DNA from: Sphingobacteriales bacterium
GTDB taxonomy: Bacteria > Bacteroidota > Bacteroidia > Sphingobacteriales > Sphingobacteriaceae
Direction: 5' to 3'
NCBI GenBank assembly: GCA_044337515.1
Contig: JBIINK010000001.1
Coordinates: 109,840-141,839 of the forward strand
DNA: 32,000 nt
Shown: positions 4,341-24,301 of the stretch, in pieces
Layout of the letters: every line of letters starts with the position of its first letter
Position numbering within the stretch: position 1 is the stretch's first letter
Made by a program: the position numbers and the translations under genes
Notes under the pieces: model-generated
Told to the model about the DNA's origin: nothing
Seen by the model: only the letters and a program-made list of their open reading frames with translations
The model's database searches: none

Positions 4341-7300
4341 TGTTCAATACTTTTAATTCGGTAAAATGTTGCAAACTTTGTTGGTACAAGTTCATGTACA
4401 TATCGTATGTACTTAATGTTTGATTGATATACATGGCCCAGTTCAAATAACTTATGTTCCCTTTATCTGTTTGCATCTGCGATGATTTCACAGCGTTTAG
4501 CATATTGGGTATTACATCCGATTTGTATTTCATTAGCAGTACTTGCTCTTCTTTACACAAGTTCGATAATCTATTTTTTTCTAACAATAATCGATCGGTT
4601 TCGTACTCGTAATTTGTTCTACTTTTCTCCCAATTTGCTTTAGCAATTTTATTTTTCGAATGCTGTGAGCCAAAAAATATCGGCACACTTAATCCTGCAC
4701 TAACAAATTGAAAACGATCTGATGATGTTGCTGGGTTCCCAGAAAGTATAGTGCCTTTCATACTTTGATTCGTATAGCCTAATCGAATGTCGGGCATTAA
4801 TTTAGATCGTTCTGTTTTCCAAGAGTACTCGTAACTCAATTGCTCCGCTTTTAAGCGTTGTAAGAAGTATGAATTAATCTCTTTGTTCTGTTCTATACCT
4901 TCATTGAAAAACGAAAGTGATGCATCAGGACTTAAATTATTTTTTTCACCTAATAACCAATTGAATTTTTCTTGATGAGATGCTAAAGTAACTTTACTAA
5001 GTTGAAGTTCTTTTTGAATGTTTAGGAATGCATTATCCAACATCGATTTTTCCATAGGGTCAATCAATCCCTTTTCGAATTGCAAATCAGCACTTCTCTT
5101 GCTATTGCTGAGTTGTTCGTACACACTGCTCAGGAACTTTACTTTCTCCGTTAACAAGTTTATCGAATGAAATTGAAAATACAATTCAGAAAGCACCTCT
5201 TGTTTTTTCATTTCTGTTTGTGCTGTTAATACATCTTTTTGATTAGAAATGTATTTTGAATTATTGACATAATACGTAGGGAAATGAAAGCTTTGCGATA
5301 CCGAATACGACATATCTTTTTCATTCGAGTTATATTGTCCTTGCTGTATTGATAAATCTGTTTTAGGAATTTCGTAGCCTTGAGCTTTGCTATTCCTTAC
5401 CGTATATAGATAATCAGATTCAGCTTTTAGCAAACTATTTTGTTGCAGAACTTTTGTTTTTGCATCAGTCCAAGTGATAGTTTTTTGTGCATTAGCTACA
5501 TTACCAATTAATAAAAATACAAGTAGAAATATCGCTACCGTATTTTTTGTTTTACTATGTTTCTTCACTTCGCGTTTTGCAAAACCTGCATACAATACTG
5601 GTAATACAAATAGAGTTAAAAGTGTTGCAGTAATTAAACCACCAATCACTACGGTTGCTAGTGGGCGTTGAACTTCTGCACCTGCACCATCACTAATGGC
5701 CATAGGTATAAAACCTAATGATGCTACTGCTGCTGTCATAAGTACCGGACGTAATCTAATTTTTGTTCCTTGTATTACAATTTTGTGAGCATCATGCCAT
5801 CCTTCTTTTCGTAGTCTGTTAAACTCAGCAATTAATACAATACCATTTAATACAGCTACCCCGAATAAGGCAATGAATCCAATACCTGCTGAGATACTAA
5901 ACGGCATACCACGAGAACTCAGTGCAAACACACCACCAATAGCGGATAATGGAATTGCTGAGAAAATTAAAATACTTTGTTGTAAAGATCCAAATGCAAA
6001 ATACAACATCAATAAAATCAATAATAAGGATAAAGGAACGGCAATAGCTAAACGTTTTTTAGCAGCTTCTAAGTTTTCAAATGCACCGCCATAACTAACA
6101 GTATAACCCGTTGGCATTTTTATGTTTGCATTCACTTTCCCTTGTAACTCTTGAACGATACTTTGCACATCTCGACCACGAACATTGAAACCTATGATGA
6201 TTCTTCGTCGTGCATCTTCTCGTTGTATTTGATTTGGTCCATCAATAATATCAATACTAGCTAATAAACGAAGTGGGATAGAAGCTCCATTTGCAGTTGG
6301 AATTAATAAATTCTCTAAACTTCCCATATCGTTTTTGATGGATGCATCCATACGTACTACTAAATCGAATTGCTTTTCTCCTTCATAAATTTTCCCGCTC
6401 ACATCACCAGCATACGCTGAACGTACAATATGATTAAGCTCATTTATATTAACTCCATATTGAGCCATTGCTTCTCTTTTATATTGAATAACGATTTGAG
6501 GCATCCCTCCAATGGCTTCTATGTATAAGTCTTTCGCGCCATCTACAGTATTAATCACATCTCCTAATTGATGTGCATATGCGGCTAAAGTATCGAGGTC
6601 TTCGCCAAATATTTTACAAACCACATCTTGACGAGCGCCAGTCATTAATTCATTGAAACGCATTTGAACTGGGAACTGAAATCCAGCGGTTACTCCTGGG
6701 ATGTTTGCAATTTCTGCACTCATTTTTTCTGCAAGTTCATCGTATGTTTTTGCACTAGTCCATTCTTTTTTATTTTTAAGAATCACCATCATATCACTTG
6801 CCTCTATTGGCATAGGGTCGGTCGGTATTTCCCCACTTCCTATTTTTGTAACTACTTTTTCTACTTCTGGGAATTTTTCTAAAAGTATTTTTGCAGTAGC
6901 TTGTGTAGTTTGAATGGTGGTATTTAAATTACTACCCGTAAGTACACGGGTATCAACCGCAAAATCTCCTTCTTCTAATTCAGGAATAAATTCCCCACCC
7001 ATATTTGCTAAAATAATTATTGCGATAACAAATGCGCTAAAGGCAGCAATTACGGCAGTCTTTGGGTAACCCAAAACTTTGGTAAGTGCAGCTTGATAAA
7101 ATCTTTCAATTTTTATCATTACACGATCTGAAATATTCGGTTCGTGTTTTAATTTTTTACTGATAAATAGCGAGCTCATCATCGGCACATAAGTAAGCGA
7201 CATAATGAATGCCCCAAGTAATGCGAATGCAACAGTAGATGCCATAGGACCGAACATCTTACCTTCAATTCCTTGTAATGAAAATATAGGAAGATAAACT

Positions 7301-8682
7301 ACTAAGATGATGATTTGTCCAAACACCGCAGAGTTCATCATTTTTGATGCGGAACCATTTACTTCCGTATTCATCTCTTCTTGTGTGAGGGAGGTAATTC
7401 CGCTAAATCGTTTGGAGTGACTGAGCTGATGCATAATGGCCTCCACAATGATGACGGCTCCATCTACTATCAAGCCGAAGTCGATGGCTCCTAAGCTCAT
7501 TAAATTGCCACTCACACCAAATAAATTCATCATGATGATGGCGAATAACATGGCAAGTGGAATAACAGATGCAACGATTAATCCCGCTCTTAAATTTCCT
7601 AAGAAAATCACGAGTACGAAAATTACAATCAGTGCTCCTTCAATTAAGTTTTTTTCTACGGTACCAATTGCATTGCCAACCATTTTACTACGATCGAGGA
7701 AAGCTTCTAATTCAATGCCTTCGGGTAATGTTTTTCGAATCTCTTCAATTCTGTTTTTAACATTTACAATTACTTCTGAAGAGTTAGCACCTTTCAACAT
7801 CATTACTACAGCACCTGCTACTTCTCCTTCGGCATTATAACACATCGCACCATAGCGAATGGCTTCAGAGAATTGAACTTTCGCCACATCACGTATTCGC
7901 AATGGATTTCCATTCGAATTGTTTTTAATCACCACGTTCTCTATGTCCTTGAAATTTTTCAAAAGACCTTCAGATCGTATATATAATATCCCTTCACCAC
8001 GCTCAATGTAAGCTCCGCCTGTATTGGCGTTGTTGGTATTTATGGCATTGAACACATCTGTAATGGTTACTCCATTGGCATGTAATTGTGCTGGGTTGAT
8101 ACTAACTTCGTATTGCTTTAATGAACCTCCAAAGCTCGACACATCTGCAACACCTTTTACCCCGATTAATTGTCGGCGGATAACCCAGTCTTGTATGGTT
8201 CGTAAATCAGCTAAAGAGTATTTGTTTTCATATCCTTTTTTCGGACGAACAACGTATTGATAAATTTCACCTAAACCGGTGGTTACAGGAGCAAGCTCCG
8301 GATTGCCAACACCATTCGGTAAATCATTTTGTACTTTTAATAAACGCTCCGCGATTTGTTGCCTAGCCCAGTAAATATCTACATCGTCTTCAAAAACAAT
8401 GGTTACTAGCGATAATCCAAATCGAGAAAAACTTCTGATTTTTTTTATGCCAGGGATATTACTATTGGCTTGCTCTATTGGGAAGGTTATTAATCGTTCA
8501 ACGTCAGGCGCCCCAAGTGCCGGACTAATCGTAATAATTTGTGCCTGATTATCTGTAATATCTGGTACAGCATCAATTGGCAGTCGAGTCGCTTCGTAAA
8601 TACCCCAAACAATTAAGCCTAAGGTAAAAAGTGCGATTATCAGTTTCTGACGAACAGAAAATGAAATAATAGCATTTAACAT
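4330..8682 (-). CDS. CusA/CzcA-family heavy-metal RND permease fused in frame to a TolC/CzcC-like outer-membrane factor
   Basis: 1450-aa ORF. The N-terminal ~1038 aa look like CzcA (MLNAIISFSVRQKLII...RLPIDAVPDITDNQAQIIT..., 12-TM RND layout). Residues from V1039 read (V/M)KKHSKTKNTVAIFLLVFLLIGNVANA/QKTITW..., followed by ~390 aa of TolC-like heptad-rich sequence. Confidence 0.8.
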   Translation of the reverse strand: MLNAIISFSVRQKLIIALFTLGLIVWGIYEATRLPIDAVPDITDNQAQIITISPALGAPDVERLITFPIEQANSNIPGIKKIRSFSRFGLSLVTIVFEDDVDIYWARQQIAERLLKVQNDLPNGVGNPELAPVTTGLGEIYQYVVRPKKGYENKYSLADLRTIQDWVIRRQLIGVKGVADVSSFGGSLKQYEVSINPAQLHANGVTITDVFNAINTNNANTGGAYIERGEGILYIRSEGLLKNFKDIENVVIKNNSNGNPLRIRDVAKVQFSEAIRYGAMCYNAEGEVAGAVVMMLKGANSSEVIVNVKNRIEEIRKTLPEGIELEAFLDRSKMVGNAIGTVEKNLIEGALIVIFVLVIFLGNLRAGLIVASVIPLAMLFAIIMMNLFGVSGNLMSLGAIDFGLIVDGAVIIVEAIMHQLSHSKRFSGITSLTQEEMNTEVNGSASKMMNSAVFGQIIILVVYLPIFSLQGIEGKMFGPMASTVAFALLGAFIMSLTYVPMMSSLFISKKLKHEPNISDRVMIKIERFYQAALTKVLGYPKTAVIAAFSAFVIAIIILANMGGEFIPELEEGDFAVDTRVLTGSNLNTTIQTTQATAKILLEKFPEVEKVVTKIGSGEIPTDPMPIEASDMMVILKNKKEWTSAKTYDELAEKMSAEIANIPGVTAGFQFPVQMRFNELMTGARQDVVCKIFGEDLDTLAAYAHQLGDVINTVDGAKDLYIEAIGGMPQIVIQYKREAMAQYGVNINELNHIVRSAYAGDVSGKIYEGEKQFDLVVRMDASIKNDMGSLENLLIPTANGASIPLRLLASIDIIDGPNQIQREDARRRIIIGFNVRGRDVQSIVQELQGKVNANIKMPTGYTVSYGGAFENLEAAKKRLAIAVPLSLLLILLMLYFAFGSLQQSILIFSAIPLSAIGGVFALSSRGMPFSISAGIGFIALFGVAVLNGIVLIAEFNRLRKEGWHDAHKIVIQGTKIRLRPVLMTAAVASLGFIPMAISDGAGAEVQRPLATVVIGGLITATLLTLFVLPVLYAGFAKREVKKHSKTKNTVAIFLLVFLLIGNVANAQKTITWTDAKTKVLQQNSLLKAESDYLYTVRNSKAQGYEIPKTDLSIQQGQYNSNEKDMSYSVSQSFHFPTYYVNNSKYISNQKDVLTAQTEMKKQEVLSELYFQFHSINLLTEKVKFLSSVYEQLSNSKRSADLQFEKGLIDPMEKSMLDNAFLNIQKELQLSKVTLASHQEKFNWLLGEKNNLSPDASLSFFNEGIEQNKEINSYFLQRLKAEQLSYEYSWKTERSKLMPDIRLGYTNQSMKGTILSGNPATSSDRFQFVSAGLSVPIFFGSQHSKNKIAKANWEKSRTNYEYETDRLLLEKNRLSNLCKEEQVLLMKYKSDVIPNMLNAVKSSQMQTDKGNISYLNWAMYINQTLSTYDMYMNLYQQSLQHFTELKVLNNEL

Positions 8683-16204: not shown

Positions 16205-16603
16205 ATGCCTGCTGAAAATAATGAAAAGCTCAGAATTGATAAATATTTATGGGCGATCCGAATATTTAAAACGAGGAGTATTGCCACTGATGCTTGTAAA
16301 GCTGGTCGCGTTAAGCTTGAGCAGCAAAGTATAAAACCATCGTATGTAGTAAAAATTGGAGATGTTTTTCATATCCAAAAAGATCAACAGAAAAAAATAA
16401 TTAAAGTACTGGAACTATTAGAAAAAAGACTGGATGCAACATCAGCCCAGAAGTATTTTATAGATCAAACCCCAATTAACGATACCCCTAGAAATCATTC
16501 TATTTTTACAGTACCCGTATTAAAACGCGACAGAGGTACAGGCAGACCTACCAAAAAAGATAGAAGAGAGATTGATGATATTCAAACGAGCTGGGAGGAC
16601 TAA
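16205..16603 (+). CDS. RNA-binding S4-domain protein (Hsp15/HslR-like)
   Basis: 132-aa ORF with an S4 motif (LRIDKYLWAIRIFKTRSIATDACKAGRVKLEQQSIKPSYVVKIGDV) and a basic C-terminal tail. Confidence 0.75.
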   Translation: MPAENNEKLRIDKYLWAIRIFKTRSIATDACKAGRVKLEQQSIKPSYVVKIGDVFHIQKDQQKKIIKVLELLEKRLDATSAQKYFIDQTPINDTPRNHSIFTVPVLKRDRGTGRPTKKDRREIDDIQTSWED

Positions 16604-17238
16604 CTAATGCCAATGCTATAAGCATAGCGTACTAGTCCACTTGTATTATGAACCCCCACTTTTTTCATGATATTTGCACGATGGGTTTCTACAGTTCGAA
16701 TAGAAATATGAAGATCTTTTGAAATATCATTACTTGACTTACCTCGAGCTAGTTGATGAAGAATTTCACGCTCTCGAGAACTTAAATCTTCTAAAAAATA
16801 GGTTTCTTTTAGTTTCTTTTTCTTTTTTTCTAAAACGTTTTCTAACGTTACTGCTGTACTGAAATGTTTTTCGCCTTTTTTAACTTTTCGAATGGCGAAA
16901 CATAGTTCTTCTTTATCTACCGACTTTAGCAAATAACCATATGCTCCTGCAGATATCATTTTATTCAGATTAACGATATCATCATATATTGTTAATGCGA
17001 TTACTTTGGTTTTCGGGTATTGTGCCGAAATTATTTTTGTCGTTTCAACACCATCTAGAATTGGCATTCCAATATCCATCAATATCACATCAACTTCATT
17101 TTGCGCACAGGCCTTGAGTACTTCGTTCCCGTTAGTTGCGATTTCTACGATTTTAATATCCTTTTCGTGTTGTAAAGCAGCTTGCACACCTTCTGAAAAA
17201 AGTGCATGGTCGTCGGCAATTATTATGTTAATTAACAT
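16600..17238 (-). CDS. NarL/FixJ (LuxR)-family response regulator
   Basis: 212-aa ORF. The receiver domain has IIADDH...DVILMDIGMPILDG...KVIALT. The C-terminal LuxR HTH reads LSSREREILHQLARGKSSNDISKDLHISIRTVETHRANIMKKVG. Confidence 0.9.
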   Translation of the reverse strand: MLINIIIADDHALFSEGVQAALQHEKDIKIVEIATNGNEVLKACAQNEVDVILMDIGMPILDGVETTKIISAQYPKTKVIALTIYDDIVNLNKMISAGAYGYLLKSVDKEELCFAIRKVKKGEKHFSTAVTLENVLEKKKKKLKETYFLEDLSSREREILHQLARGKSSNDISKDLHISIRTVETHRANIMKKVGVHNTSGLVRYAYSIGIS

Positions 17239-17306
17239 ACTACTTAATATTTGCTGTAAATTAAATATATTTACTGATAATTCTTACAAAACAAAAATAA
17301 TAACTT

Positions 17307-17615
17307 ATGTCTAACTCACAAAACGAAATTAACTTAAATGAAGCTAGTCAATTGACTGCTAATTACAGAAATGCTAACCCAAACAAACCTATTGCAGAAT
17401 ACTTTAATAGAGATGCATTTGAAGCCCTATTAGCAAACCCATCTATTACAGGAATTAGAATCTACAAAGGCTTGGATGATCAAGGTGTAGAACATTTGGT
17501 TTTGGTTGGAGCAATACAAGAAGGTGCGACAGACGAAGATGAAATAAGTTTAATTATGGAAGCAGGTAAACTTTGTCCGCCAATATGTTCAAATATTAAC
17601 CCTCTAAATAGCTAA
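17307..17615 (+). CDS. Small conserved-looking hypothetical protein ending in a CPPxC motif
   Basis: 102-aa ORF, first gene of the sensor operon, divergent from the response regulator. Motifs GIRIYKG, LVLVGA and the C-terminal LCPPICSN resemble uncharacterised Bacteroidota proteins I have seen. Function unknown. Confidence 0.5.
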   Translation: MSNSQNEINLNEASQLTANYRNANPNKPIAEYFNRDAFEALLANPSITGIRIYKGLDDQGVEHLVLVGAIQEGATDEDEISLIMEAGKLCPPICSNINPLNS

Positions 17616-17619
17616 TATT

Positions 17620-18300
17620 TTGGATTGGTTCGAAACATATATTAAGTCAGATCAATTTTTAGTGTTGAATAATATAAGTTCCTATTCCATGCTATTGCCT
17701 TTTATTATAGGGGTTTTCAGGTTTAAGGATTTGCATATTTCTATGCGATATTTTTTGGGAATTATAGTTGTTTTTTTAGTCGCAGAAATAGGCATGAATA
17801 TTCTTGCTTACTTACATCAGTATAATTTATGGTTAGTTAATATTGTTAATCTATTACAATTAATATTGCTCTTTTACTTTTTTTATTTAACTAGTCTAAA
17901 TCGTATTTATAAGAAAATGCTTGTCTTATTTGGCATACTATTTACGGTGATTTGGTCAATCTTAATTTTTCATTTTGGGTTCAATAATTTAGAGCCGTAT
18001 TCACTAACCTTAGCGAGTATATTGACATTATTAGCCTGTGGATATAATATGGTTGAACTGGTTACCAACGATGAACCCAATTTATTTAGGTCTTCTTATT
18101 TTATAATTTCTTTAATGTATTTTATGTATTCTGCAGTTGTAGGAGTAACCTCTATTTTTCTAACAAATTCATTAGAATTTATAGTGAATAATCCATTATT
18201 ATGGAATATACGTGTGCTCATACATTGTGTAGTGAATATATTTTTAAATATTGGATTAGCTTATTCGTTTATATGCAAAGTATCGAAACCCAAGCACTAG
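17620..18300 (+). CDS. Seven-TM membrane protein (sensor-domain-like), possibly the detached N-terminus of the adjacent kinase
   Basis: 226-aa ORF with a TTG start 4 nt after the previous stop. It has seven hydrophobic segments and no soluble domain. Its 3' end overlaps the kinase ORF in another frame. Confidence 0.55.
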   Translation: MDWFETYIKSDQFLVLNNISSYSMLLPFIIGVFRFKDLHISMRYFLGIIVVFLVAEIGMNILAYLHQYNLWLVNIVNLLQLILLFYFFYLTSLNRIYKKMLVLFGILFTVIWSILIFHFGFNNLEPYSLTLASILTLLACGYNMVELVTNDEPNLFRSSYFIISLMYFMYSAVVGVTSIFLTNSLEFIVNNPLLWNIRVLIHCVVNIFLNIGLAYSFICKVSKPKH

Positions 18301-19019
18301 TAGGTGCAATTGTAAGTTTTGTGGTGGTGAGCATTATGTTTGCCTTCTTTTTGGTATTGGTATTTATTTATCAAAAGAAACGTAGGCAAAAAGAGCAAGA
18401 GCTGTTTGAATCTATTATATCTACTGAAGAGAAAGAGCGAATCCGAATTGCCAAAGAATTGCATGATAGCGTTGGCGCTTCATTATCGGCAGTAAAATTA
18501 CATTTTGGTGCATTAATGCCAGGCATAGAAAATGTAGAGAAAGCAGAGAGAATTGCAAAAATGCTAAGCGATGCTTGCGATGAAGTTCGCGTTATTTCTC
18601 ATCAAATGATGCCTAAGGCAATTCAGTCTGAAGGATTTTTTAACGCTTTAGATTTATTCCTTCGTCCTTTTAAACAGCTGGAGCAAGTCAACGTAGAATA
18701 CATCCTATTAGGAGAACCTCGAGAAATTGTAGATCAAAGCAAATCGGTTATGTTATTTCGAGTGATTCAAGAATTAGTTAATAATGCATTAAAGCATTCC
18801 GATGCAGCAAATATTACCATTCAAATTACAATACAGCCAGAAACCTTACTTGTGTTAGTTGAAGATGATGGCAAGGGTTTTGAAGTTAACAATGAAAACA
18901 AAAACAATGGATTAGGGCTAGCCAATATTCAAAATCGTGTGAATTATTTAAAAGGTAATTTGAATATTGAATCTGAACTTGGGAAAGGCACTACAGTACT
19001 GATTCATTTGAATATTTAA
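18273..19019 (+). CDS. Sensor histidine kinase core (HisKA_3 + HATPase_c), NarL-partner type
   Basis: The ORF track frame opens at 18201, and the first well-placed ATG is 18273 (MQSIETQALVGAIVSFVVVSIMFAFFLVLVFIY, one TM). The H-box is RIRIAKELHDSVGASLSAVKL, the N-box is ELVNNALKHS, and the G-boxes are DDGKGF and NGLGLANI. Confidence 0.8.
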   Translation: MQSIETQALVGAIVSFVVVSIMFAFFLVLVFIYQKKRRQKEQELFESIISTEEKERIRIAKELHDSVGASLSAVKLHFGALMPGIENVEKAERIAKMLSDACDEVRVISHQMMPKAIQSEGFFNALDLFLRPFKQLEQVNVEYILLGEPREIVDQSKSVMLFRVIQELVNNALKHSDAANITIQITIQPETLLVLVEDDGKGFEVNNENKNNGLGLANIQNRVNYLKGNLNIESELGKGTTVLIHLNI

Positions 19020-19223
19020 CGTTAATTGCTTGTTTATTAGCAAATTGCTGATTTTCAATAATTAGTTGTTTATTAATGCTCCATATAAATTAATATCTAA
19101 TTCCTCTGTTTTAGCCCTTTAAGCATCAAATTTGTTTGATTTCATGTAAAATATACATATTTTTAAAGACGACTAATATTATAAATACCTCAGATTATTT
19201 TGCGTACCACTATTTTGAGAACT

Positions 19224-21068
19224 ATGAGTGAAGGAAAGAAGATACTGATTAATGCATTTTTTTACGCTTTTTTGTTTTTTGTTCCGGCTCAGCAGACCAT
19301 GGCACAATCGTTTTTGTACCAACCGAAAGCAGGTCAGAACCCCGAACCCCTAAATCAAGCGAATAATTTCGAAATCGTTATTCGTCAAGAATTAACCAAA
19401 TTCTTTGCGCCAAGTACATTTCTTGTCGACATTAACATGTTGCAAGGAAATGTTGAAGTAATTAAACCTACACCTTCTACGAAAAAGAAGAAGAGTTTAC
19501 AACGTTTACCTGGTATGCCAGTTTTACCAAAAGGCTACCAAGATCAAGACAATAGCGACACTACTAAAAATTATACATACAGCATTGAGGAAGTGGATTA
19601 CCTTTATGTGAACGTAATAGTTGATACCACCTATTCAAATTCAGATATCGATTTCATTAATTCCTTGATTCGTTCTATTATTCCAATTGATGAAACGAAA
19701 GGTGATATTGTTAAAATAAAACGTTCTGTATTCCCTAAGGGTCAAGAGCTAATTGATAATAAAGGTGCAGAACCAGCAATAGCCCAAATTCCAAATTACT
19801 TACCTGCTCCTAGAGAGCCCGAACGCTTAGCTCCAGCTCCTATTGCACCTGTAGAGAAACAAGAAAAAGCTGCTGATAATACGCTTTTATATGTTTTCGT
19901 AGTACTCTTAATACTCTGCTTTATCATCATCGTATTTGTTACTTACTTACTATATCGTAAGAGTAAAGACAATGATAAAAAACCGAAAGCGGATGATGAT
20001 ACGAAGTTAATCCCAGGACCGAATGGTAGTGGACAAGATATGAGTATTATCTATCCAAACACAGGTGGTGGCGATTCTAGCAATTACCAAACAGAAGATA
20101 TTATCAATTACGAGTTCAATCGTCAACATGTTATTACGAGTGTAATTAGTAACCCGAAAGAAGTAGCAAGTATGTTCGAAACTTGGATACTCACTAATCC
20201 TGAAGATGGTAAGTTAAGAGCAGCGAATGCATTAAGTGCTGTAAACCCTAAGTTGTTGAATTTCTTACGTCCATTTATGGCCGAGCAAGTGTATTCAGAT
20301 TTAAATCAAGCAGTATCGAATCATCAATTAAAATCACATAGCGATAAATACCAAGAAGCAAGAGACTTTAGTAAGGAATTACTTTCGATGAATGCTGAAC
20401 CAGATCGCAATGAAGATCTTTTTGAATTTTTAAATCAAATTACTGATTCGCAAATCATTCATATGTTAAAAGAAGAAGATGATAATTTATCAGCTATTCT
20501 ATTAGCACAACTGGAAAGTAAAAGAAGTAAAAATGTATTGGGAATGATTGAAATTAATCGTCGTTCATCAATCGTAATGAAAATGAGTAAAATCGATTTC
20601 ATATCATCTTCAATCTATCGTGAAGTAGCTACGTATTTCTCTAAGAAAGCTATTGATGTAAAAGGAATGAAGAATGTTGCTTTCGATGGTTTACAATCTA
20701 TTTTGGATATTCTAGATCAAATGCAAGACGAAGATCAAGATCAATTGATCAGTACAATTGCTTCTCAAGATTTAGAATTGGCAAACAACATCAAACAACA
20801 ATTCGTTGGATTTAAAAATGTGGTTTACCTTACCGATCTTCAATTAGAAACAGCATTAAGAGATATCGATACCAACACGCTTGTTGATGCGCTTACTGGC
20901 ATTAGCAGTCACGTTCAAAGTAAAATTATCGTACAACGCCCACCTCGTGAGCAATCATTAATTAAAGCAGAATTAGAAAGCGGTAATACCGTTACCCCAG
21001 AGGATAGAGACGTGGCAAGAAAGAAAATTATCGATTCGATACGTAAAACATTAAAACTAGTGGCTTGA
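19224..21068 (+). CDS. FliF-C-terminal-like periplasmic domain + TM + full-length FliG-like cytoplasmic domain (fusion protein)
   Basis: The ORF track starts at the TTG at 19200. I prefer the ATG at 19224 (MSEGKKILINAFFYAFLFFVPAQQTMAQ, a signal peptide or TM1). YLYVNVIVDTTYSNSDIDFINSLIRSIIPIDETKGDIVKIKRSVFP resembles the FliF segment (rlsVaVvvd...RGD.v.v...F) just before its last TM. TM2 is LLYVFVVLLILCFIIIVFVTYLLY. The last ~320 aa align by eye with FliG middle (EEDDNLSAILLAQLESKRSKNVLGMIEINRRSSIVMKMSKI) and C-terminal motifs (FVGFKNVVYLTDLQLETALRDIDTNTLVDALTGISSHVQSKII...REQSLIKAELES...DRDVARKKIIDSIRK). Confidence 0.6.
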   Translation: MSEGKKILINAFFYAFLFFVPAQQTMAQSFLYQPKAGQNPEPLNQANNFEIVIRQELTKFFAPSTFLVDINMLQGNVEVIKPTPSTKKKKSLQRLPGMPVLPKGYQDQDNSDTTKNYTYSIEEVDYLYVNVIVDTTYSNSDIDFINSLIRSIIPIDETKGDIVKIKRSVFPKGQELIDNKGAEPAIAQIPNYLPAPREPERLAPAPIAPVEKQEKAADNTLLYVFVVLLILCFIIIVFVTYLLYRKSKDNDKKPKADDDTKLIPGPNGSGQDMSIIYPNTGGGDSSNYQTEDIINYEFNRQHVITSVISNPKEVASMFETWILTNPEDGKLRAANALSAVNPKLLNFLRPFMAEQVYSDLNQAVSNHQLKSHSDKYQEARDFSKELLSMNAEPDRNEDLFEFLNQITDSQIIHMLKEEDDNLSAILLAQLESKRSKNVLGMIEINRRSSIVMKMSKIDFISSSIYREVATYFSKKAIDVKGMKNVAFDGLQSILDILDQMQDEDQDQLISTIASQDLELANNIKQQFVGFKNVVYLTDLQLETALRDIDTNTLVDALTGISSHVQSKIIVQRPPREQSLIKAELESGNTVTPEDRDVARKKIIDSIRKTLKLVA

Positions 21069-22132
21069 TGAAAAGAATAATACTACTCCTAACATTAATT
21101 TGTTCATTATACGGTTCATCTAAAGCTCAGATTGATAAGAATAATCCTATCATTAGAAAGCAATTGGAATTGGTAGATTTAATGGATGAAATTACCGATC
21201 AGGTAAAATTAAATGATCTACTTTACAAACGTGTAGCATTAGCATCTTTTGATTATCCCGATTACATTCTTAATGAAAGTGAAGCGTCACAAATTCGAAG
21301 TAGAATTGAAGGTGCCTTTGCAGTTTCAGGTTTTACTGTAGTATCGGCTCCTGAATTCAAACAAAAACCATTAACCATTGTAAATGGTACCGATTCTAAC
21401 CTTACCATTACTCGTCAAAACACCTTAGAGCGTTTAATTTTAGACGAGGATATGATGAATAATGTTATTGACAAGTATGCTTTGCAAGCGTTAGTTTATG
21501 TGCAATTAACCTATGATCACATTACTGGTTTTCAAGCAAATATTCAGTTAGTAAAATCCAGGTCTAAAGAATTAATTTATAGTGTTGTATTGAATTCTAA
21601 TCCAGAGATGTATAATCCTAGAAAAGCTGAATTCCAAGCAGCCGCTGGTATTTCGTTCTTTAAAAATCAATTTTATTTAGTTGACAATATAGATCAAGGT
21701 GATCAATTCTTAGCGACAATGTCTGATGCTACTCTAATATGGCGCCAACCATTTAATAAAAACCATGGTGGTTTTTATGGTTTTAGAACCGGATTATCAT
21801 TTCTTCAATTAATGAGCACGGGAGTAGATACAGGCTTTACAAAATTCAATAAAGTAATGCCTCATGCTGGTTTCTATTATTCTTTATGTTTTTTAAAGAA
21901 AAATGATCAGCCGCGTAAATATTGGATGGAAGCGTTTCAATCAATGGGAGTTCAAATTTCCAATGAAGTAATACCATTTGTTCGTCAAGGTTTAATAGTT
22001 AACATGACTCAAAATCTAAGTTTAGAACTTGATTTTAGATATTTCTTAGTTAATTCAATTTTTACAAATACAAAAAATACATTACAGTTAGCAAATTTTG
22101 GATATGGATTCAGCTTTATATACAGGCCTTAA
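21068..22132 (+). CDS. Secreted protein with N-terminal alpha/beta domain and C-terminal outer-membrane beta-barrel-like domain
   Basis: The ATG at 21068 overlaps the upstream TGA (TGATG). The signal peptide is MKRIILLLTLICSLYGSSKA/Q. The C-terminal half shows beta-strand alternation and ends LANFGYGFSFIYRP. No family recognised. Confidence 0.5.
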   Translation: MKRIILLLTLICSLYGSSKAQIDKNNPIIRKQLELVDLMDEITDQVKLNDLLYKRVALASFDYPDYILNESEASQIRSRIEGAFAVSGFTVVSAPEFKQKPLTIVNGTDSNLTITRQNTLERLILDEDMMNNVIDKYALQALVYVQLTYDHITGFQANIQLVKSRSKELIYSVVLNSNPEMYNPRKAEFQAAAGISFFKNQFYLVDNIDQGDQFLATMSDATLIWRQPFNKNHGGFYGFRTGLSFLQLMSTGVDTGFTKFNKVMPHAGFYYSLCFLKKNDQPRKYWMEAFQSMGVQISNEVIPFVRQGLIVNMTQNLSLELDFRYFLVNSIFTNTKNTLQLANFGYGFSFIYRP

Positions 22133-22667
22133 GTATACTTTAATTATTTCAATTTTTGCACTTGCATCTTGCGACACTCGTTATACTATACAAGATTTAG
22201 CAGAGCAACAACGCATTGCCGAAAACTCACGAAGAGCCTATTCTACAAAGGATCCCGTGAATATTAAGTATAAAAATAATGCAGCTTCAATAGATTATGC
22301 AGTAGGGAAGGGTAATGAAGAATTTGTATTATCAATGACTACTGACCCAAAATCAAAAAAAGATGTTATTGATGGTTCTTTAAATGTTAGTAAAGAAGCA
22401 AAAGATGCTGTTAACTTAGCGATGAAATACTATCGCCGTTCTCAAGAATTCTTATATGTTGACGATTACAATTCAGCATTAGATTATGTTGATGAGTCTT
22501 TAAAAATTATTGAAACTGCAGAAGCATTATCTTTAAAAGGTAGTGTGCTATACGTGATGGGTAACGAAGAAAAAGCAAAAGAACTTTGGATGCAAGCCGC
22601 TAAACTTGATCCAGAAATTAGAGTGCCTTCTGCAAAAGAATTAAAAGACATTACTTCAAAAAAATAA
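22098..22667 (+). CDS. TPR-repeat lipoprotein
   Basis: 189-aa ORF overlapping the previous gene by 35 nt. Lipobox is LIISIFALASC/DTR. TPR-like helices are in the C-terminal half (AMKYYRRSQEFLYVDDYNSALDYVDESLKI...GNEEKAKELWMQAAKLDPE). Confidence 0.6.
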   Translation: MDMDSALYTGLKYTLIISIFALASCDTRYTIQDLAEQQRIAENSRRAYSTKDPVNIKYKNNAASIDYAVGKGNEEFVLSMTTDPKSKKDVIDGSLNVSKEAKDAVNLAMKYYRRSQEFLYVDDYNSALDYVDESLKIIETAEALSLKGSVLYVMGNEEKAKELWMQAAKLDPEIRVPSAKELKDITSKK

Positions 22668-22669
22668 AT

Positions 22670-23500
22670 ATGAAATTTTCCATCGGAACATTTTTAGGAT
22701 TCTCAATCTGTACTGCATTAATTATTTTAGGTATTATGGATACTGCTGGGGCAATACGCTTAGAGCATTACATTCCTAACATGATGAAAAATCCTTTCAT
22801 ACATATCGCAGGTTTTTTCATTGTATTTGGTGGAGTAATGGCATCTATGTTTGTAATGTATCCAGTAAATGTAGTGTTTGGTGCATTAGGTAAATTCGGA
22901 CAATTATTCAGTCAAACAAAACATAAAGCAATTTCTATAAATGAAGATGTAGAAATGGTAGTTGGTTGGGCTGATCGCATTAAAAAAGATAAGAAAGAAT
23001 TTTTGAATGATATTGCACAAAACGAGAAAGATTCGTTCGTGCGATTATTGTTTGATTTGTATAATACTAATTACTCTTCTTCGGATATCCGAACTATGGG
23101 CGAAACTAGTATTGATAAAGACTATAGCCAATCTATTCAAATGTCGGATGTGTTTCATGCTATGGCGAACTCGGCGCCAGCGTTTGGTATGTTGGGTACG
23201 GTGTTGGGTATGATTGTGATGTTGAATAATTTAAATGACCCTTCGAATATTGGTCCAGGTATTTCTACAGGATTAATAGGTACTCTTTATGGTGTTGCAT
23301 CAGCTAATTTATTTTTCATCCCATTGTCTAAAAAAATTAGATATAATGGTTTACATACGCAACGTAGAGAAATTATTATTTTAGAAGGGATGTTATTGAT
23401 TAAAGAGAATAAACCATCAATGGTAATTCGCGACCAATTAATGTCGTTTGTAAGCAGAGATGATTCTGATGCTTCAACTAAAACAGCAACAGCAAAATAA
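22670..23500 (+). CDS. motA: MotA/PomA-type stator channel protein (MotA/TolQ/ExbB superfamily)
   Basis: 276-aa ORF with two N-terminal TMs, a ~100-aa cytoplasmic loop, and then TM3/TM4 carrying the conserved prolines (SAPAFGMLGTVLGMIVML; GLIGTLYGVASANLFFIPLSKKI). The MotA-type C-terminus reads REIIILEGMLLIKENKPSMVIRDQLMSFV. Confidence 0.8.
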   Translation: MKFSIGTFLGFSICTALIILGIMDTAGAIRLEHYIPNMMKNPFIHIAGFFIVFGGVMASMFVMYPVNVVFGALGKFGQLFSQTKHKAISINEDVEMVVGWADRIKKDKKEFLNDIAQNEKDSFVRLLFDLYNTNYSSSDIRTMGETSIDKDYSQSIQMSDVFHAMANSAPAFGMLGTVLGMIVMLNNLNDPSNIGPGISTGLIGTLYGVASANLFFIPLSKKIRYNGLHTQRREIIILEGMLLIKENKPSMVIRDQLMSFVSRDDSDASTKTATAK

Positions 23501-24186
23501 TGTCGGGAGAAGATAACAGACGTAAGCTAAAAAAGAATATCCGAGAGGAGGTTCATGCGGAGCTTTGGCTAATTACGTATGCCGATTTGATTACCTTACT
23601 GTTATGTTTTTTCATTCTATTATTTGCATCAGCAAACGTTGACCAAAACGTTTGGGATCGTGTAAAGGCTAGTTATAGTTCTAAAGTAAAAAACAAAACC
23701 ATATCAACTCCATTAAGTGAAATTAAACATCAACTTGATTCCATGTTGATGAAAGAAGTGAAAGATAAAAGTCTAGAAATCGAAAATAAAGACAACGCCA
23801 TTAACATGCGTTTCTTAAGTAATTCTTTTTACAATAGTGGCGACGCTAAACTGCTCCCAGAAGGAAAAGAAATTGTAGACAAAATTTTCGAAATTATTAA
23901 TGCCGTAAGCAAAGAGAAAAAAGCAAATTTTAGTCTCGACGTTGAAGGACATACCGATGATAACCCTATTGCCACCAAAGAATTTCCTTCAAACTGGGAA
24001 CTCTCTGTTGCACGTGCTTCTAATGTTGTGCGTTACCTAATTGATAGAGGTATGGAACCCCAACGATTAAAAGCTTCAGGTTATGCAGATACACAACCCG
24101 TGGTATCTAACCGAAACGGTAAAGGCGAACCTATTCCTGCAAATCAATCTGTTAATAGAAGGGTTGTGTTGAGGATACATTACTAA
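23500..24186 (+). CDS. motB: MotB-type stator protein with OmpA-like peptidoglycan-binding domain
   Basis: The ATG overlaps the motA-like stop (TAATG). The single TM has the channel Asp in the MotB signature WLITYADLITLLLCFFILLFA. The C-terminal OmpA/MotB domain reads FYNSGDAKLLPEGKEIVDKI...LDVEGHTDDNPI...SNWELSVARASNVVRYL...GYADTQPV...NQSVNRRVVLRI. Confidence 0.85.
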   Translation: MSGEDNRRKLKKNIREEVHAELWLITYADLITLLLCFFILLFASANVDQNVWDRVKASYSSKVKNKTISTPLSEIKHQLDSMLMKEVKDKSLEIENKDNAINMRFLSNSFYNSGDAKLLPEGKEIVDKIFEIINAVSKEKKANFSLDVEGHTDDNPIATKEFPSNWELSVARASNVVRYLIDRGMEPQRLKASGYADTQPVVSNRNGKGEPIPANQSVNRRVVLRIHY

Positions 24187-24261
24187 ACTAAACTTAATTT
24201 ATTTCATTTCATTTATGTCAAACCCCTCAACTGCGCTTCGCTCCGTTCGGGGACCGTCACT

Positions 24262-24297
24262 AATAGCATAATAGCATAATATCATATTAGCATATTA
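24262..24297. repeat. Octamer array aatagcat x4 (agcat family), forward orientation
   Basis: aatagcat aatagcat aatatcat attagcat, located between the motB-like gene and pgk. Confidence 0.75.
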
Positions 24298-24301
24298 TTG
24301 T

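Follow-up and report, generated by a model that had tools for sequence, protein, structure and literature searches.

A single open reading frame in a Sphingobacteriales genome encodes what we identify as a natural fusion in which a trimmed FliF is joined head-to-tail to a complete FliG. This identity is supported by three independent kinds of evidence: sequence profiles, structural matches of the predicted model in Foldseek, and an operon context that includes MotA and MotB. The gene lies in a DNA stretch of 32,000 nucleotides, here called the window, and opens a five-gene operon that resembles the core of a flagellar motor put to a non-flagellar use. The initial annotation of this DNA had proposed a single polypeptide joining a trimmed FliF-like part to a FliG-like protein, and Pfam, profiles against the PDB and Foldseek all agree with it. 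No description of such a fusion was found in the literature searched. The operon consists, in order, of:

19224–21068, plus strand: FliF(RBM3)–FliG fusion gene (ORF, Pfam, PDB profile matches, Foldseek)
21068–22132, plus strand: 354-aa outer-membrane partner (AlphaFold2 model with pLDDT 74; Foldseek)
22104–22667, plus strand: TPR lipoprotein with lipobox FALAS↓C (Pfam TPR_2, 1.1e-7)
22670–23500, plus strand: MotA/PomA-type stator A subunit, 276 aa (PF01618, 1.8e-20)
23500–24186, plus strand: MotB-type stator B subunit, 228 aa (Pfam MotB_plug 4.3e-16, OmpA 6.5e-17)

The fusion ORF has the extent first given for it, from the ATG at 19224 to the TGA at 21066–21068, and its product has 614 aa. An alternative TTG upstream at 19200 would add eight residues; homologues begin with MSEGKK. 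The protein runs from a signal peptide through an RBM3 domain with a shortened collar, a Pro-rich spacer, one transmembrane (TM) helix and an acidic/basic linker to helices resembling the FliF C-terminal tail, followed by an N-like domain and the M and C domains of FliG:

19224–19304, plus strand: signal peptide, aa 1–27 (hydrophobic helix 3–19 in the model; family-conserved AQ)
19356–19457, plus strand: RBM3a-like S-ring half, aa 45–78 (helix 46–58, strands 66–72 and 76–78 in the AlphaFold2 model)
19458–19580, plus strand: insertion where FliF has its beta-collar, aa 79–119 (pLDDT below 50)
19581–19736, plus strand: RBM3b-like half, aa 120–171 (strands, helix 139–152, K/RGD at 159–161, strand 162–168, FP)
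19737–19877, plus strand: Pro-rich periplasmic spacer, aa 172–218 (41–45% gaps, poor conservation, pLDDT below 50)
19878–19955, plus strand: TM helix, aa 219–244, equivalent to FliF TM2 (hydropathy 3.56; modelled helix 220–249)
19956–20087, plus strand: disordered, charged cytoplasmic linker, aa 245–288 (pLDDT below 50 at 248–289; low conservation)
20088–20204, plus strand: tentatively, helices like the FliG-binding C-terminal tail of FliF, aa 289–327, including NPKEVASMFETWIL
20205–20417, plus strand: FliG N-domain-like region, aa 328–398 (profile, Foldseek, Pfam in relatives)
20418–20684, plus strand: FliG middle domain, aa 399–487 (Pfam FliG_M; gapless alignment to 1lkv)
20685–21065, plus strand: FliG C-terminal domain, aa 488–614 (Pfam FliG_C; superposition on 1qc7)
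20934–20981, plus strand: torque-helix equivalent, aa 571–586, QRPPREQSLIKAELES (HMMER alignment to Thermotoga maritima FliG)

Pfam recognised FliG_C (E 2.7e-16; 60.2 bits, cutoff 23.3) and FliG_M (E 1.6e-8; 35.1 bits, cutoff 25) in the fusion protein. YscJ_FliF_C matched residues 111–170 (E 4.3e-5) with 24.4 bits, barely over its cutoff of 23.8, and the sequence similarity of the window protein itself to FliF RBM3 is thus marginal. The fliG model TIGR00207 matched with E 7e-24 and 84.8 bits, under its equivalog cutoff of 226.7. A profile of the fusion family matched FliG structures in the PDB with E-values of 1e-16 to 6e-22 and aligned without gaps to the MC fragment of T. maritima FliG (1lkv, E 5.8e-22). 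The initial annotation had suggested a structural comparison with FliG and FliF RBM3. The AlphaFold2 model is of mediocre quality (mean pLDDT 64.6, pTM 0.29); its best Foldseek match was full-length FliG (3hjl, 312 of 321 columns, E 8.5e-9), and the next were FliF RBM3/S-ring structures (8z5v, 8ftf and 6sd1; E 5e-3 to 2e-2, probability 1.00). Across 74 diverse relatives, Pfam detected FliG_C in all 74, FliG_M in 69, FliG_N in 57 and YscJ_FliF_C in 24. Clustering at 50% identity leaves at least 134 full-length clusters in the family, across which the architecture is retained down to 17–30% identity.

In the periplasmic part, the signal peptide stands in place of FliF TM1 and is probably cleaved by SPase I at TMA↓Q. 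About 17 residues separate it from RBM3a, and RBM1 and RBM2 are absent, with no PF01514 match in the fusion protein or in the relatives searched with Pfam. When a profile of the periplasmic region alone was compared with the whole PDB, FliF chains were the sole matches, in two collinear pieces that correspond to RBM3a and RBM3b; this bears out the FliF-like assignment made earlier for this segment. Profile positions 8–58 matched FliF 235–290 (RBM3a), and the RBM3b piece matched FliF 9yh6 (E 0.02) and residues 420–453 of FliF 12dr. The KGD of the window protein, first read as a variant of the RGD of FliF, corresponds to RGD in the family consensus, and G160 and D161 are near-invariant. Between the two halves, the insertion contains an LPGxPxxP motif (nt 19506–19529) that is near-invariant: 132 of 135 family members have its P96 and G97. 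The insertion spans 41 aa, and 45 aa at the median of the family, compared with 111 aa in Salmonella FliF, where the collar spans residues 271–381 (PMC11739650). The full beta-collar of about 111 aa, the rod socket, is therefore not present. In Salmonella FliF, the export gate sits in RBM2 and the rod in the collar, and the RBM3 fragment by itself forms the S-ring (33/34-mer) and collar (PMC11739650). As RBM3 alone suffices for this ring, an altered ring geometry or stoichiometry, which had been deduced from the trimming, is not implied by it. A peptidoglycan-binding LysM domain precedes RBM3 in three of ten long relatives, and a freely rotating ring would be hard to reconcile with this domain in that subgroup.

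The periplasmic region ends with LPAPREPERLAPAPIAPVEK (aa 193–212). The predicted TM helix is followed by RKSKDNDKKPKADDD, and RKSKDNDKK after the helix fits a positive-inside orientation. The low-complexity linker then extends to GGGDSSNY, after which about 326 aa of helical sequence reach the C-terminus. The outline drawn in the initial annotation (signal, Pro-rich end, second TM helix, linker up to GGGDSSNY) stands, except that the linker measures about 44 aa and not about 60. Similarly, the complete FliG of about 320 aa that had been placed here is present from about residue 328, and the first 40 or so residues of the region rather resemble the FliF tail. Within these, NPKEVASMFETWIL aligns collinearly with NEPELAAQVVKNWMNDM, the FliF tail of the Vibrio FliF–FliG chain 8z4d, with a score that is insignificant alone, as is that of the longer alignment of profile positions 235–329 to Salmonella FliF 466–560 (E 0.46). 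The family profile matched the N-domain of T. maritima FliG (5tdy_B, E 0.006) from FliG residue 5, directly after the FliF-tail-like helix, and Pfam FliG_N on the window protein itself was sub-threshold (21.1 bits) and off-register.

In the middle domain, the FliM-binding EHPQR motif is lost: EEDDN (aa 417–421) stands in its place, with E418-D-D-N-L as the residues aligned to the motif, and E418 alone is conserved in the family. The modelled C-terminal domain superposes on 1qc7 with an rmsd of 1.7–1.9 Å over 85 columns (TM(target) 0.76–0.84). A generic MgtE-N/armadillo repeat without the FliG_C fold, which the initial annotation had named as a threat to its reading, is rejected by this superposition and by a sub-cutoff MgtE_N score of 18.6 bits. 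HMMER reproduced exactly the gapless torque-helix alignment of the initial annotation (in E. coli numbering R575 = R281, A582 = D288, E583 = D289 and T591 = R297) and added T558 = K264. Two of the five torque charges are thus retained (R575 and E583) and three replaced (T558, A582 and T591), in line with the partial retention noted at the outset. Of 135 family members, 131 have R or K at position 575, and R575 is among merely ten or so near-invariant positions over 74–135 diverse members. An acidic residue occupies 582 or 583, the D288/D289 positions, in 86 of 135.

The junctions of the operon are tight. The fusion and outer-membrane genes meet in TGATG, where the ATG shares the A of the TGA; the outer-membrane and TPR genes overlap by 29 nt; the TPR gene and motA are 2 nt apart; and motA and motB meet in TAATG. 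Judging from these junctions, the five genes are translationally coupled. MotA has a MotA_ExbB domain and four TM helices, and matches MotA and PomA chains in the PDB. The NCBIfam models for flagellar motor protein, MotP and PomA matched it with E-values of 1e-29 to 3e-37, all under their equivalog cutoffs (the top MotA equivalog model reaches 128 bits against a cutoff of 237, and the top MotB model 156 against 283). Both functional prolines are present in MotA (Pro170 in SAPAFGM and Pro218 in FFIPLS), and K105 occupies the position of E. coli MotA R90/PomA R88, which is K or R in seven of eight lineages. The position of MotA E98/PomA E96–E97 is N113, which varies in the family (N, S, Q), as does the neighbouring D114. 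As the E98 position is not conserved, the canonical R281–E98 pair is not evident. MotB has a TM helix with Asp29, a plug and an OmpA-like peptidoglycan-binding domain, and matches MotB, PomB and MotS chains in the PDB. By these features (plug, Asp29, OmpA-like domain) the predicted stator is of the flagellar type. A TolQ/ExbB-type stator was considered and rejected, with tolQ at 21.1 bits (cutoff 221) and exbB2 at 17.2 bits (cutoff 135).

The two remaining operon proteins are of a different kind. The outer-membrane partner consists of a signal peptide (SSKA↓Q), a periplasmic alpha/beta domain (aa ~28–177) that resembles TolB-N, LpoB and GNA1162 (Foldseek: TolB, LpoB 4q6z, 4hrv), and an eight-stranded OmpA-like barrel (aa ~189–353; Foldseek 1bxw, E 2.7e-6). 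No family was assigned to it in Pfam or NCBIfam. TPR domains homologous to that of the lipoprotein occur in all related loci, fused forms among them. Across loci, these non-flagellar partners co-vary with the operon.

Five-gene synteny is kept in the 17 further type-A loci examined; it was seen in L001–L010, in the distant L011–L013, and in L014, L015, L017 and L019–L021. For all five genes, dN/dS is 0.02–0.2 with saturated dS, which indicates purifying selection on the operon. In related genomes the module sits between housekeeping genes at a fixed chromosomal position, and a search for a plasmid homologue found none. Neither the window nor any of 21 loci with flanks of up to 10 kb contains a further flagellar gene, fliM, fliN and fliH included. 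Type IX secretion (T9SS) and gliding markers (Por_Secre_tail, SprB, PorP/SprF) were found near fusion-family loci. Bacteroidota are not known to be flagellated, and the class Bacteroidia is known to lack flagella. Upstream of the operon, outside the conserved core, lies a variable two-component system (16600–19019, mixed strands):

16600–17238, minus strand: LuxR/GerE response regulator (its own sequence and the Response_reg + GerE annotation of its counterpart in locus L016)
17620–18300, plus strand: membrane ORF beside the two-component genes
18201–19019, plus strand: HisKA_3 kinase (Pfam)

This system is seen in the window, L001 and L009 and is missing from L002–L008; a similar pair flanks the module in L016.

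We favour, as somewhat likelier right than wrong, the reading that the operon encodes a non-switching rotor–stator module of trimmed FliF, complete FliG and a MotA5B2-like stator, without export apparatus, rod or filament. In such a module, the RBM3 domains would build an inner-membrane ring of fusion proteins, which would place the FliG C-domains as a circle on the cytoplasmic face. Ions would pass through the Asp29 channel of peptidoglycan-anchored MotAB units, and the cytoplasmic domain of MotA would push the torque helix of FliG (K105 of MotA with E583 of FliG; R575 of FliG), so that the ring turns. Because the FliM-binding motif is lost, the motor would not switch direction, and because RBM1/RBM2 and most of the collar are lost, it would have no type III export gate and no rod. 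More speculatively, the short periplasmic collar (LPGxP) may relay the motor's output to the outer-membrane barrel protein, the TPR lipoprotein or both, or else one or both of these may position the ring. The motor would then drive a process in the envelope or at the surface of Bacteroidota cells.

The fusion proteins could instead be force transducers resembling TonB or TolA, which form no ring and dock singly through FliG_C on the MotA5B2 unit. Stator rotation would crank or pull them, and tension would reach the outer-membrane partners through the Pro-rich spacer and RBM3 in the service of outer-membrane homeostasis or transport, as in ExbBD–TonB or TolQRA–TolB–Pal–CpoB. We consider this unlikely. 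The poorly conserved Pro-rich spacer (aa 172–218) between the TM helix and the globular periplasmic domain would suit such a transducer, as would the TolB-N/LpoB-like domain, a TPR partner reminiscent of CpoB and the Pal/OmpA-like domain of MotB; the LysM domain of some relatives also suits a wall-attached, non-rotating protein. However, all the nearest relatives of the periplasmic domain, a ring-building motif, form rings of 30–34 subunits, the stator is flagellar-type with a plug, unlike ExbB/TolQ (tolQ 21 bits versus a cutoff of 221), and a full three-domain FliG with the putative FliF-tail/FliG_N joint exceeds what a simple handle needs. LysM-bearing relatives equally suggest a wall-fixed ring, as expected if the FliG ring were a static platform that recruits and unplugs MotAB, with ion influx or a mechanosensitive signal as output instead of torque. 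The TPR and outer-membrane proteins might then be stator scaffolds like MotX/MotY, PflA/PflB and FlgP. The MotB plug, whose release presumably requires docking, the known stator TPR scaffolds of Vibrio and Campylobacter and the two-component systems that recur beside the module all fit this, but we hold it to be quite unlikely: the conserved torque-helix Arg and the largely conserved MotA R90 equivalent are what torque transmission needs, Pfam and NCBIfam find a signalling output domain in none of the five proteins, and the neighbouring regulators are variable and outside the core.

That the fusion and MotAB replace separate fliF and fliG in a genuine flagellum, with the other flagellar genes elsewhere in the genome, is very unlikely. 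FliF, FliG and the stator are all bona fide flagellar families, and engineered full-length FliF–FliG fusions are reported to build rings in Salmonella and Vibrio (PMC6079021, PMC11481574; PDB 8z4d). The gene survey covers the window and the flanks of the loci. Against a flagellum, the fusion lacks RBM1/RBM2 and with them the site of the export gate, its collar, the part that holds the rod, has shrunk from 111 to about 41–45 aa, EHPQR is lost across the family, and neither the 21 loci (flanks of at most 10 kb) nor the window holds any further flagellar gene. In addition, the outer-membrane and TPR partners are not flagellar proteins, and the T9SS/gliding genes found in the carriers are typical of Bacteroidia, which are known to lack flagella. 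Loss of flagella with a few genes retained is common, yet a decaying, functionless remnant of an ancestral flagellar cluster is barely credible here and, given the data on selection and conservation, as good as refuted: the reading frames are intact and translationally coupled, dN/dS is 0.02–0.2 in all five genes with dS saturated, the architecture is kept to 17–30% identity over at least 134 clusters, and the operon has acquired co-varying non-flagellar partners. An anti-phage defence system based on MotAB, Zorya-like or otherwise, is just as implausible. MotB does match ZorB models (E 6e-21), which reflects general MotB homology, but there is no ZorA, ZorC or ZorD match, MotA lacks a long tail and matched no PADLOC model, the remaining three operon proteins have no PADLOC match either, and the fixed chromosomal position between housekeeping genes without a plasmid homologue argues against defence.

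Among known systems, the flagellar rotor–stator core (Salmonella/E. coli, T. maritima, Vibrio) has the same order of RBM3, TM2, C-tail and FliG N-M-C in fliF–fliG, with the C-tail and FliG N parts of the fusion putative, and shares the R281 and D289 charges, the pair of MotA prolines, the MotB plug and channel Asp, and the OmpA-like anchor. The fusion differs from it in being one polypeptide without RBM1/RBM2, with a collar of about 41–45 instead of 111 aa, a probable cleavable signal peptide for TM1 and an extra Pro-rich spacer, and in not keeping EHPQR, K264, D288 and R297. Its scores are far under the equivalog cutoffs (FliG 84.8 versus 226.7), its neighbourhood is free of genes for FliM/FliN, export, rod, hook and filament, and it shares its operon with a TPR lipoprotein and an outer-membrane barrel protein. 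SpoIIIAG and other RBM3-type ring proteins have the common alpha-beta-beta-[insertion]-beta-alpha-beta fold, with the insertion forming a beta-barrel collar, but their matches (Foldseek 5wc3, E 0.5) are far weaker than those of FliF, and they have no FliG or stator association. Flagellar stators are accompanied in some bacteria by TPR/Sel1-type and outer-membrane-tethered small alpha/beta-domain proteins (MotX/MotY, PflA/PflB, FlgP); Pfam and NCBIfam detected no sequence homology between these and the operon partners.

The closest known case is the shorter FliF–FliG fusion of Chlamydia. It is a natural protein of Chlamydiaceae, bacteria not thought to be flagellated, that joins a shortened FliF to a FliG-like sequence (Bergeron 2016, PMC4768692). 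At about 330 aa, it has an RBM2-like and a second RBM-like motif, with FliG homology reported for the M-domain alone, and it accompanies flhA/fliI-type remnants and a type III secretion system; a MotAB partnership is not described (PMC4768692). By contrast, the 614-aa protein keeps RBM3 and probably all three FliG domains, with the torque helix among what is kept, and its gene shares an operon with motAB. This architecture of RBM3 with FliG N, M and C led us to reject membership in the Chlamydia type. The engineered fusions (Salmonella full-frame, PMC6079021; Vibrio FliFG, PMC11481574, PDB 8z4d), join the FliF C-terminus to the FliG N-terminus and are reported to assemble S-rings, and the joint of the window protein probably lies at the equivalent place. 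Unlike the natural window fusion, they are laboratory constructs with full-length FliF inside a complete flagellum.

Tol–Pal and ExbBD–TonB are MotAB-family motors with outer-membrane-linked partners, and TolB-N-like, TPR (CpoB-like) and OmpA-like modules are common to them and the operon; the stator here is flagellar-type, however, and the transducer would be a FliF/FliG fusion rather than TolA or TonB. GldLM/PorLM of T9SS and gliding has no sequence relationship to the module, and there GldM itself is the periplasmic shaft, without a FliG-like rotor. It is nevertheless an ion-driven, 5:2-type motor in the same phylum that transmits work through the periplasm to outer-membrane-associated rings (PMC9389320), and thus a functional precedent.

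The ORF called in the initial annotation exists as one continuous reading frame, and four genes follow it on the same strand:

19224-21068, + strand: fusion ORF (ATG 19224, TGA 21066-21068), 614 aa
21068-22132, + strand: orf355, 354-aa outer-membrane (OM) barrel protein
22104-22667, + strand: TPR lipoprotein
22670-23500, + strand: MotA
23500-24186, + strand: MotB

The architecture first described for the fusion is also recovered. A hydrophobic N-terminal signal (aa 1-27, ending in TMA-Q) precedes a periplasmic region with LPAPREPERLAPAPIAPVEK (aa 193-212) at its end. Next come a transmembrane (TM) helix (aa 219-244, hydropathy 3.56), followed by the positive-inside stretch RKSKDNDKKPK, and a charged linker of low complexity that runs as far as GGGDSSNY (aa 245-288) and measures about 44 aa, not the ~60 estimated at first. 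The C-terminal region is all-helical to the last residue. In the AlphaFold2 model of the fusion (mean pLDDT 64.6), the helical region mostly scores 70-87 and the linkers are disordered.

The cytoplasmic half is homologous to FliG. Pfam FliG_C (E 2.7e-16) and FliG_M (E 1.6e-8) both exceed their gathering cutoffs, and TIGR00207 (fliG) matches aa 396-608 with E 7e-24, at 84.8 bits against an equivalog cutoff of 226.7. When a profile of 19 fusion homologues was compared with the PDB, FliG MC of T. maritima (1lkv) aligned gap-free (E 5.8e-22), and FliG of A. aeolicus, H. pylori and Salmonella also matched. The top Foldseek PDB matches of the fusion model are full-length FliG (3hjl, 312/321 columns, E 8.5e-9), followed by Salmonella C-ring subunits, and the isolated C-domain of the model superposes on 1qc7 at 1.7-1.9 Å. 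The alternative that the initial annotation had set against FliG, a generic MgtE-N/armadillo-like repeat, is ruled out, because Pfam, TIGR00207, 1lkv, 3hjl and 1qc7 all give FliG; MgtE_N stays below its cutoff, and FliG accounts for every top match in the PDB and in Foldseek.

The periplasmic segment, which had been likened to FliF by eye, is matched to FliF by Pfam, by profile searches and by structure. YscJ_FliF_C matches fusion aa 111-170 at 24.4 bits (cutoff 23.8) and is present in 24 of 74 diverse fusion relatives (best E 4e-6). Searched against all PDB sequences at E ≤ 10, a profile of the periplasmic part matches FliF only: 9yh6 (E 0.02), over a beta-alpha-beta with the RGD...F end, and 12dr in two collinear pieces (8-58 on FliF 235-290 and 115-148 on FliF 420-453). 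These pieces correspond to RBM3a and RBM3b, the two parts of the third ring-building domain (RBM). In Salmonella FliF, RBM3a (228-270) and RBM3b (382-438) flank the beta-collar (271-381; PMC11739650). The AlphaFold2 model follows the RBM3 pattern, alpha(46-58)-beta-beta-(disordered 79-119)-beta-beta-alpha(139-152)-beta, and Foldseek lists FliF RBM3/S-ring structures below FliG (8z5v, 8ftf, 6sd1; E 5e-3 to 2e-2, probability 1.00), with SpoIIIAG far lower. RBM1 and RBM2 are absent from the fusion, in which RBM3a follows the signal peptide after only about 17 residues. The insertion at the collar has 41 aa, compared with 111 aa in Salmonella; in the family its median length is 45 aa and its range 23-112. 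An RBM3 fragment alone forms the S-ring (PMC11739650). The proposal of a natural FliF-FliG analogue is thus upheld by profiles and Foldseek, whereas the changed ring stoichiometry that accompanied it is not entailed by the trimming.

At the joint between the two halves, a profile of fusion aa 283-410 matches FliG_N as present in the FliF-FliG_N complex of T. maritima (5tdy_B, E 0.006). The match begins at FliG residue 5, the counterpart of G329 in the fusion. Directly before this match, the helix NPKEVASMFETWIL (aa 310-323) is collinear with the FliF C-terminal tail NEPELAAQVVKNWMNDM of 8z4d, an engineered Vibrio FliF-FliG chain. In the full-length search, positions 235-329 of the fusion profile fall on Salmonella FliF 466-560, from TM2 to the last residue (E 0.46). 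These FliF-tail matches, each insignificant alone but mutually collinear, suggest an essentially linkerless joint from the end of fliF to the start of fliG. Loss of a stop codon between adjacent fliF and fliG would give such a joint. Engineered FliF-FliG fusions show that rings can assemble from chains joined covalently in this way (PDB 8z4d; PMC6079021, PMC11481574).

The gapless torque-helix alignment proposed in the initial annotation was recovered by HMMER (R575 = E. coli R281, A582 = D288, E583 = D289, T591 = R297), which adds T558 = K264. Two of the five charges are kept, in agreement with the partial retention noted at first. Position 575, Arg or Lys in 131 of 135 full-length family representatives, is one of about ten near-invariant positions in the whole fusion. 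An acidic residue occupies 582 or 583 in 86 of the 135, and the positions equivalent to K264 and R297 are non-basic in the family. The FliM-binding EHPQR motif reads EEDDN in the fusion, with the Glu alone conserved in the family; this loss fits the lack of fliM and fliN in the window and the fetched loci. The remaining near-invariant positions all lie in the periplasmic part. They are LPGxP, within the insertion at the collar (P96 and G97 in 132/135 representatives), F144, (R/K)GD in RBM3b (D161 in 134/135) and FP.

Downstream of the fusion, the ATG of orf355 has one base in common with the fusion TGA, the TPR lipoprotein gene overlaps its predecessor by 29 nt, and the motB start overlaps the motA stop. 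The 354-aa protein falls into no family of Pfam or NCBIfam. The model of it (pLDDT 74) contains a periplasmic alpha/beta domain, like that of the TolB N-domain, LpoB or GNA1162, and an 8-stranded OmpA-like barrel (1bxw, E 2.7e-6). The orf355 segment aa 98-125 (window 21359-21442), KQKPLTIVNGTDSNLTITRQNTLERLIL, is almost invariant in 19 homologues, yet predicted to be disordered (pLDDT about 31-35), and is probably a binding or oligomerisation segment. The TPR lipoprotein has the lipobox FALAS-C. MotA (PF01618, 1.8e-20) has its best NCBIfam and PDB matches in flagellar MotA/MotP/PomA and keeps both functional prolines, and MotB has the plug (4.3e-16), the channel Asp29 and an OmpA-like domain. 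In an alignment of MotA with C. sporogenes MotA, taken from the PDB match, and with PomA as a second reference, K105 occupies the R90/PomA-R88 position of the torque interface (Lys or Arg in 7/8 lineages), and the E98 position, N113 here, is unconserved in the family. Compared with both references, the first periplasmic loop contains an 11-13-residue insertion, RLEHYIPNMMKNP (MotA aa 30-42, window 22757-22795). It is found in all eight lineages aligned, is conserved in sequence among close relatives and may serve as a contact site for a partner in the periplasm. Between motB and pgk (window 24255-24300), short AT-rich direct repeats, TAGCATAATAGCATAATATCATATTAGCATATTATT, follow a CCCC…GGGG inverted repeat.

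The order of the five genes is conserved. It is found, where the contig is long enough, in ten Sphingobacteriales MAG loci (L001-L010, fusion identity 62-99%), in the closer loci L020 and L021 (80% identity), and in the metagenomic loci L011-L013, L014/L015, L017 and L019, where fusion identity is only 34-37% or less. All four operon partners are detectably homologous across the syntenic loci. Between orthologues, dN/dS is 0.02-0.2 in all five genes, with dS saturated, which effectively excludes the reading of the module as a relic. A word-index search had given a tiny family of 29 proteins; this was overturned by an exhaustive HMM search, in which 169 proteins matched below 1e-30, nearly all of them full-length fusions. 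Of the best 150 matches taken together with P0020, P0027 and P0028, 134 are at least 560 aa long; the matches listed cover the whole length of the profile and carry a TM helix at around 200-330. Two seemingly unfused FliG-like relatives (P0131 and P0158, 331 aa) derive from genes cut by contig ends and therefore provide no evidence for split forms.

Among the genes flanking the loci are T9SS/gliding markers of Bacteroidota, namely Por_Secre_tail cargo, SprB and PorP/SprF. A plasmid or mobile origin was rejected, as tblastn found no match in PLSDB and the chromosomal neighbourhood of the module is fixed. In distant loci with the gene order of the window, a DUF5723 protein of 505-515 aa is encoded directly 3' of motB (L014:15073-16620, L015:5414-6961, L017:12251-13768); in the window, pgk takes this place. 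A 226-aa polytopic membrane ORF overlaps a HisKA_3 kinase ORF by 100 nt in another frame (both within window 17620-19019, +), an arrangement repeated in L001; the kinase has one TM only and no sensor domain. Together with a LuxR/GerE regulator (window 16600-17238, -), this two-component system is inserted immediately 5' of the motor operon in some genomes only (window, L001 and L009), and a HisKA_3 and GerE pair also flanks the divergent module of L016. About 5 kb downstream of the L020 module, an ORF annotated with 11,416 aa (L020:20307-21854 onward) adjoins a PorP/SprF gene and presumably encodes a giant SprB-like surface adhesin. A 1450-aa ORF (window 4330-8682, -), with a 1447-aa counterpart in L020, joins a complete AcrB/RND pump (PF00873, aa 5-1033) to a C-terminal OEP/TolC-like domain (PF02321, aa 1270-1367) and is, if real, an unusual fusion of pump and OM factor.

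Two loci contain a divergent form of the module, referred to as type B:

L016:217-13781: type-B module
L018:1191-14377: type-B module

The order in both is fusion (741-754 aa), TPR domain, MotA, MotB. In L016, the 754-aa fusion ORF (L016:10001-12265) runs in-frame into a lipoprotein-type signal (…FFWTSC) and a window-like TPR domain, either as a real fusion or through an assembly or frameshift artefact. A conserved set lies upstream of the type-B fusion. It comprises several small secreted proteins in which DUF4402 matches recur, a pair of ~280-aa proteins, of which one weakly matches a pilus chaperone, and a ~1000-aa protein that ends in 80 residues homologous to the window TPR lipoprotein. 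In these neighbours and in the accessory proteins, all Pfam and NCBIfam matches (DUF4402, pilus chaperone) are sub-threshold. In type B, a fibre/usher-like system may be linked to the motor, the synteny hinting at coupling to a surface-fibre system. Among ten long relatives, three have a peptidoglycan-binding LysM domain before RBM3 (P0220, P0168 and P0154, e.g., L018:10001-12226; E 3e-12, 1e-6 and 2e-4). The type-B and LysM points are leads, not findings on the window.

We favour a non-switching, ion-driven rotor-stator, because the parts of the torque pair are kept and those for export, rod and switching are lost. The parts kept would suffice for a torque pair, with the FliF-tail/FliG_N joint made permanent through fusion. 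Of the parts lost, RBM1/2 serve export, most of the collar serves the rod, and EHPQR serves switching. The ring would engage the TPR lipoprotein, the OM-barrel protein or both; alternatively, these two may act as stator scaffolds, a role that MotX/Y or PflA/B have in certain flagella. For this rotor-stator, we infer ring formation, rotation, MotA-FliG contact and output. A simple transfer of the flagellar model is disfavoured because of the LysM relatives, the unconserved E98 position and the incomplete set of torque charges.

Rival readings see a static docking platform or a TonB/TolA-like crank. The LysM domain N-terminal to RBM3 is awkward for a freely rotating ring in the relatives that carry it. 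In the favoured rotor-stator, FliG_C with its conserved Arg would face a flagellar-type stator. Less likely, the module is a component of a real flagellum; its MotA is closest to flagellar stators, but other flagellar genes were found neither in the 32-kb window nor in any fetched locus. Bacteroidia are not known to have flagella. Zorya or another defence system was rejected and is effectively excluded by a PADLOC search. In its full form, the rotor-stator reading describes a new trans-envelope rotary machine of non-flagellated Bacteroidota, in which the flagellar rotor-stator core alone (RBM3 ring, FliG, MotAB) would drive an OM or surface process; we hold this tentatively, at somewhat below an even chance. 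Such a machine might derive from the flagellum by reduction, or it might survive as a relative of a pre-flagellar motor. We regard the module as the flagellar rotor-stator core, fused, stripped and re-partnered, and the chance that it represents a distinct envelope machine is substantial.

Rotor proteins in filament-less genomes have been explicitly raised as unexplained (PMC12199754), and plug-bearing, TGI-type MotAB stators are regarded as flagellum-specific in a recent survey (PMC12505986). The locus is a concrete, widespread and strongly selected case of a FliG and MotAB torque pair that is tied covalently to a ring-forming FliF part and retained alongside new OM partners, while the remainder of the flagellum is apparently missing. 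If the reading as a rotary machine is true, the torque-generating core can exist and be useful without type III export, rod and filament. If the module rotates, it would be a naturally minimised motor, in which stator-rotor coupling could ideally be studied by structural and biophysical means in the absence of the switch complex. It would also allow modular scenarios of flagellar origin, and torque delivery to the OM, to be examined on a test case. If it does not rotate, it would represent a new use of the FliG-MotA interface.

Full-text literature searches returned only the Chlamydia fusion and engineered fusions; in none of the results was a FliG/MotAB module described from Bacteroidota. The window fusion is homologous to both FliF and FliG and an orthodox member of neither. 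Unlike orthodox FliG, it scores below the equivalog cutoff, lacks EHPQR and retains 2/5 torque charges, and unlike FliF, it lacks RBM1/2 and the full collar. Its closest natural precedent is the FliF-FliG fusion of Chlamydiaceae, for which homology to FliG_M only and no MotAB partnership have been described, and which is half the size and keeps other RBMs (PMC4768692).
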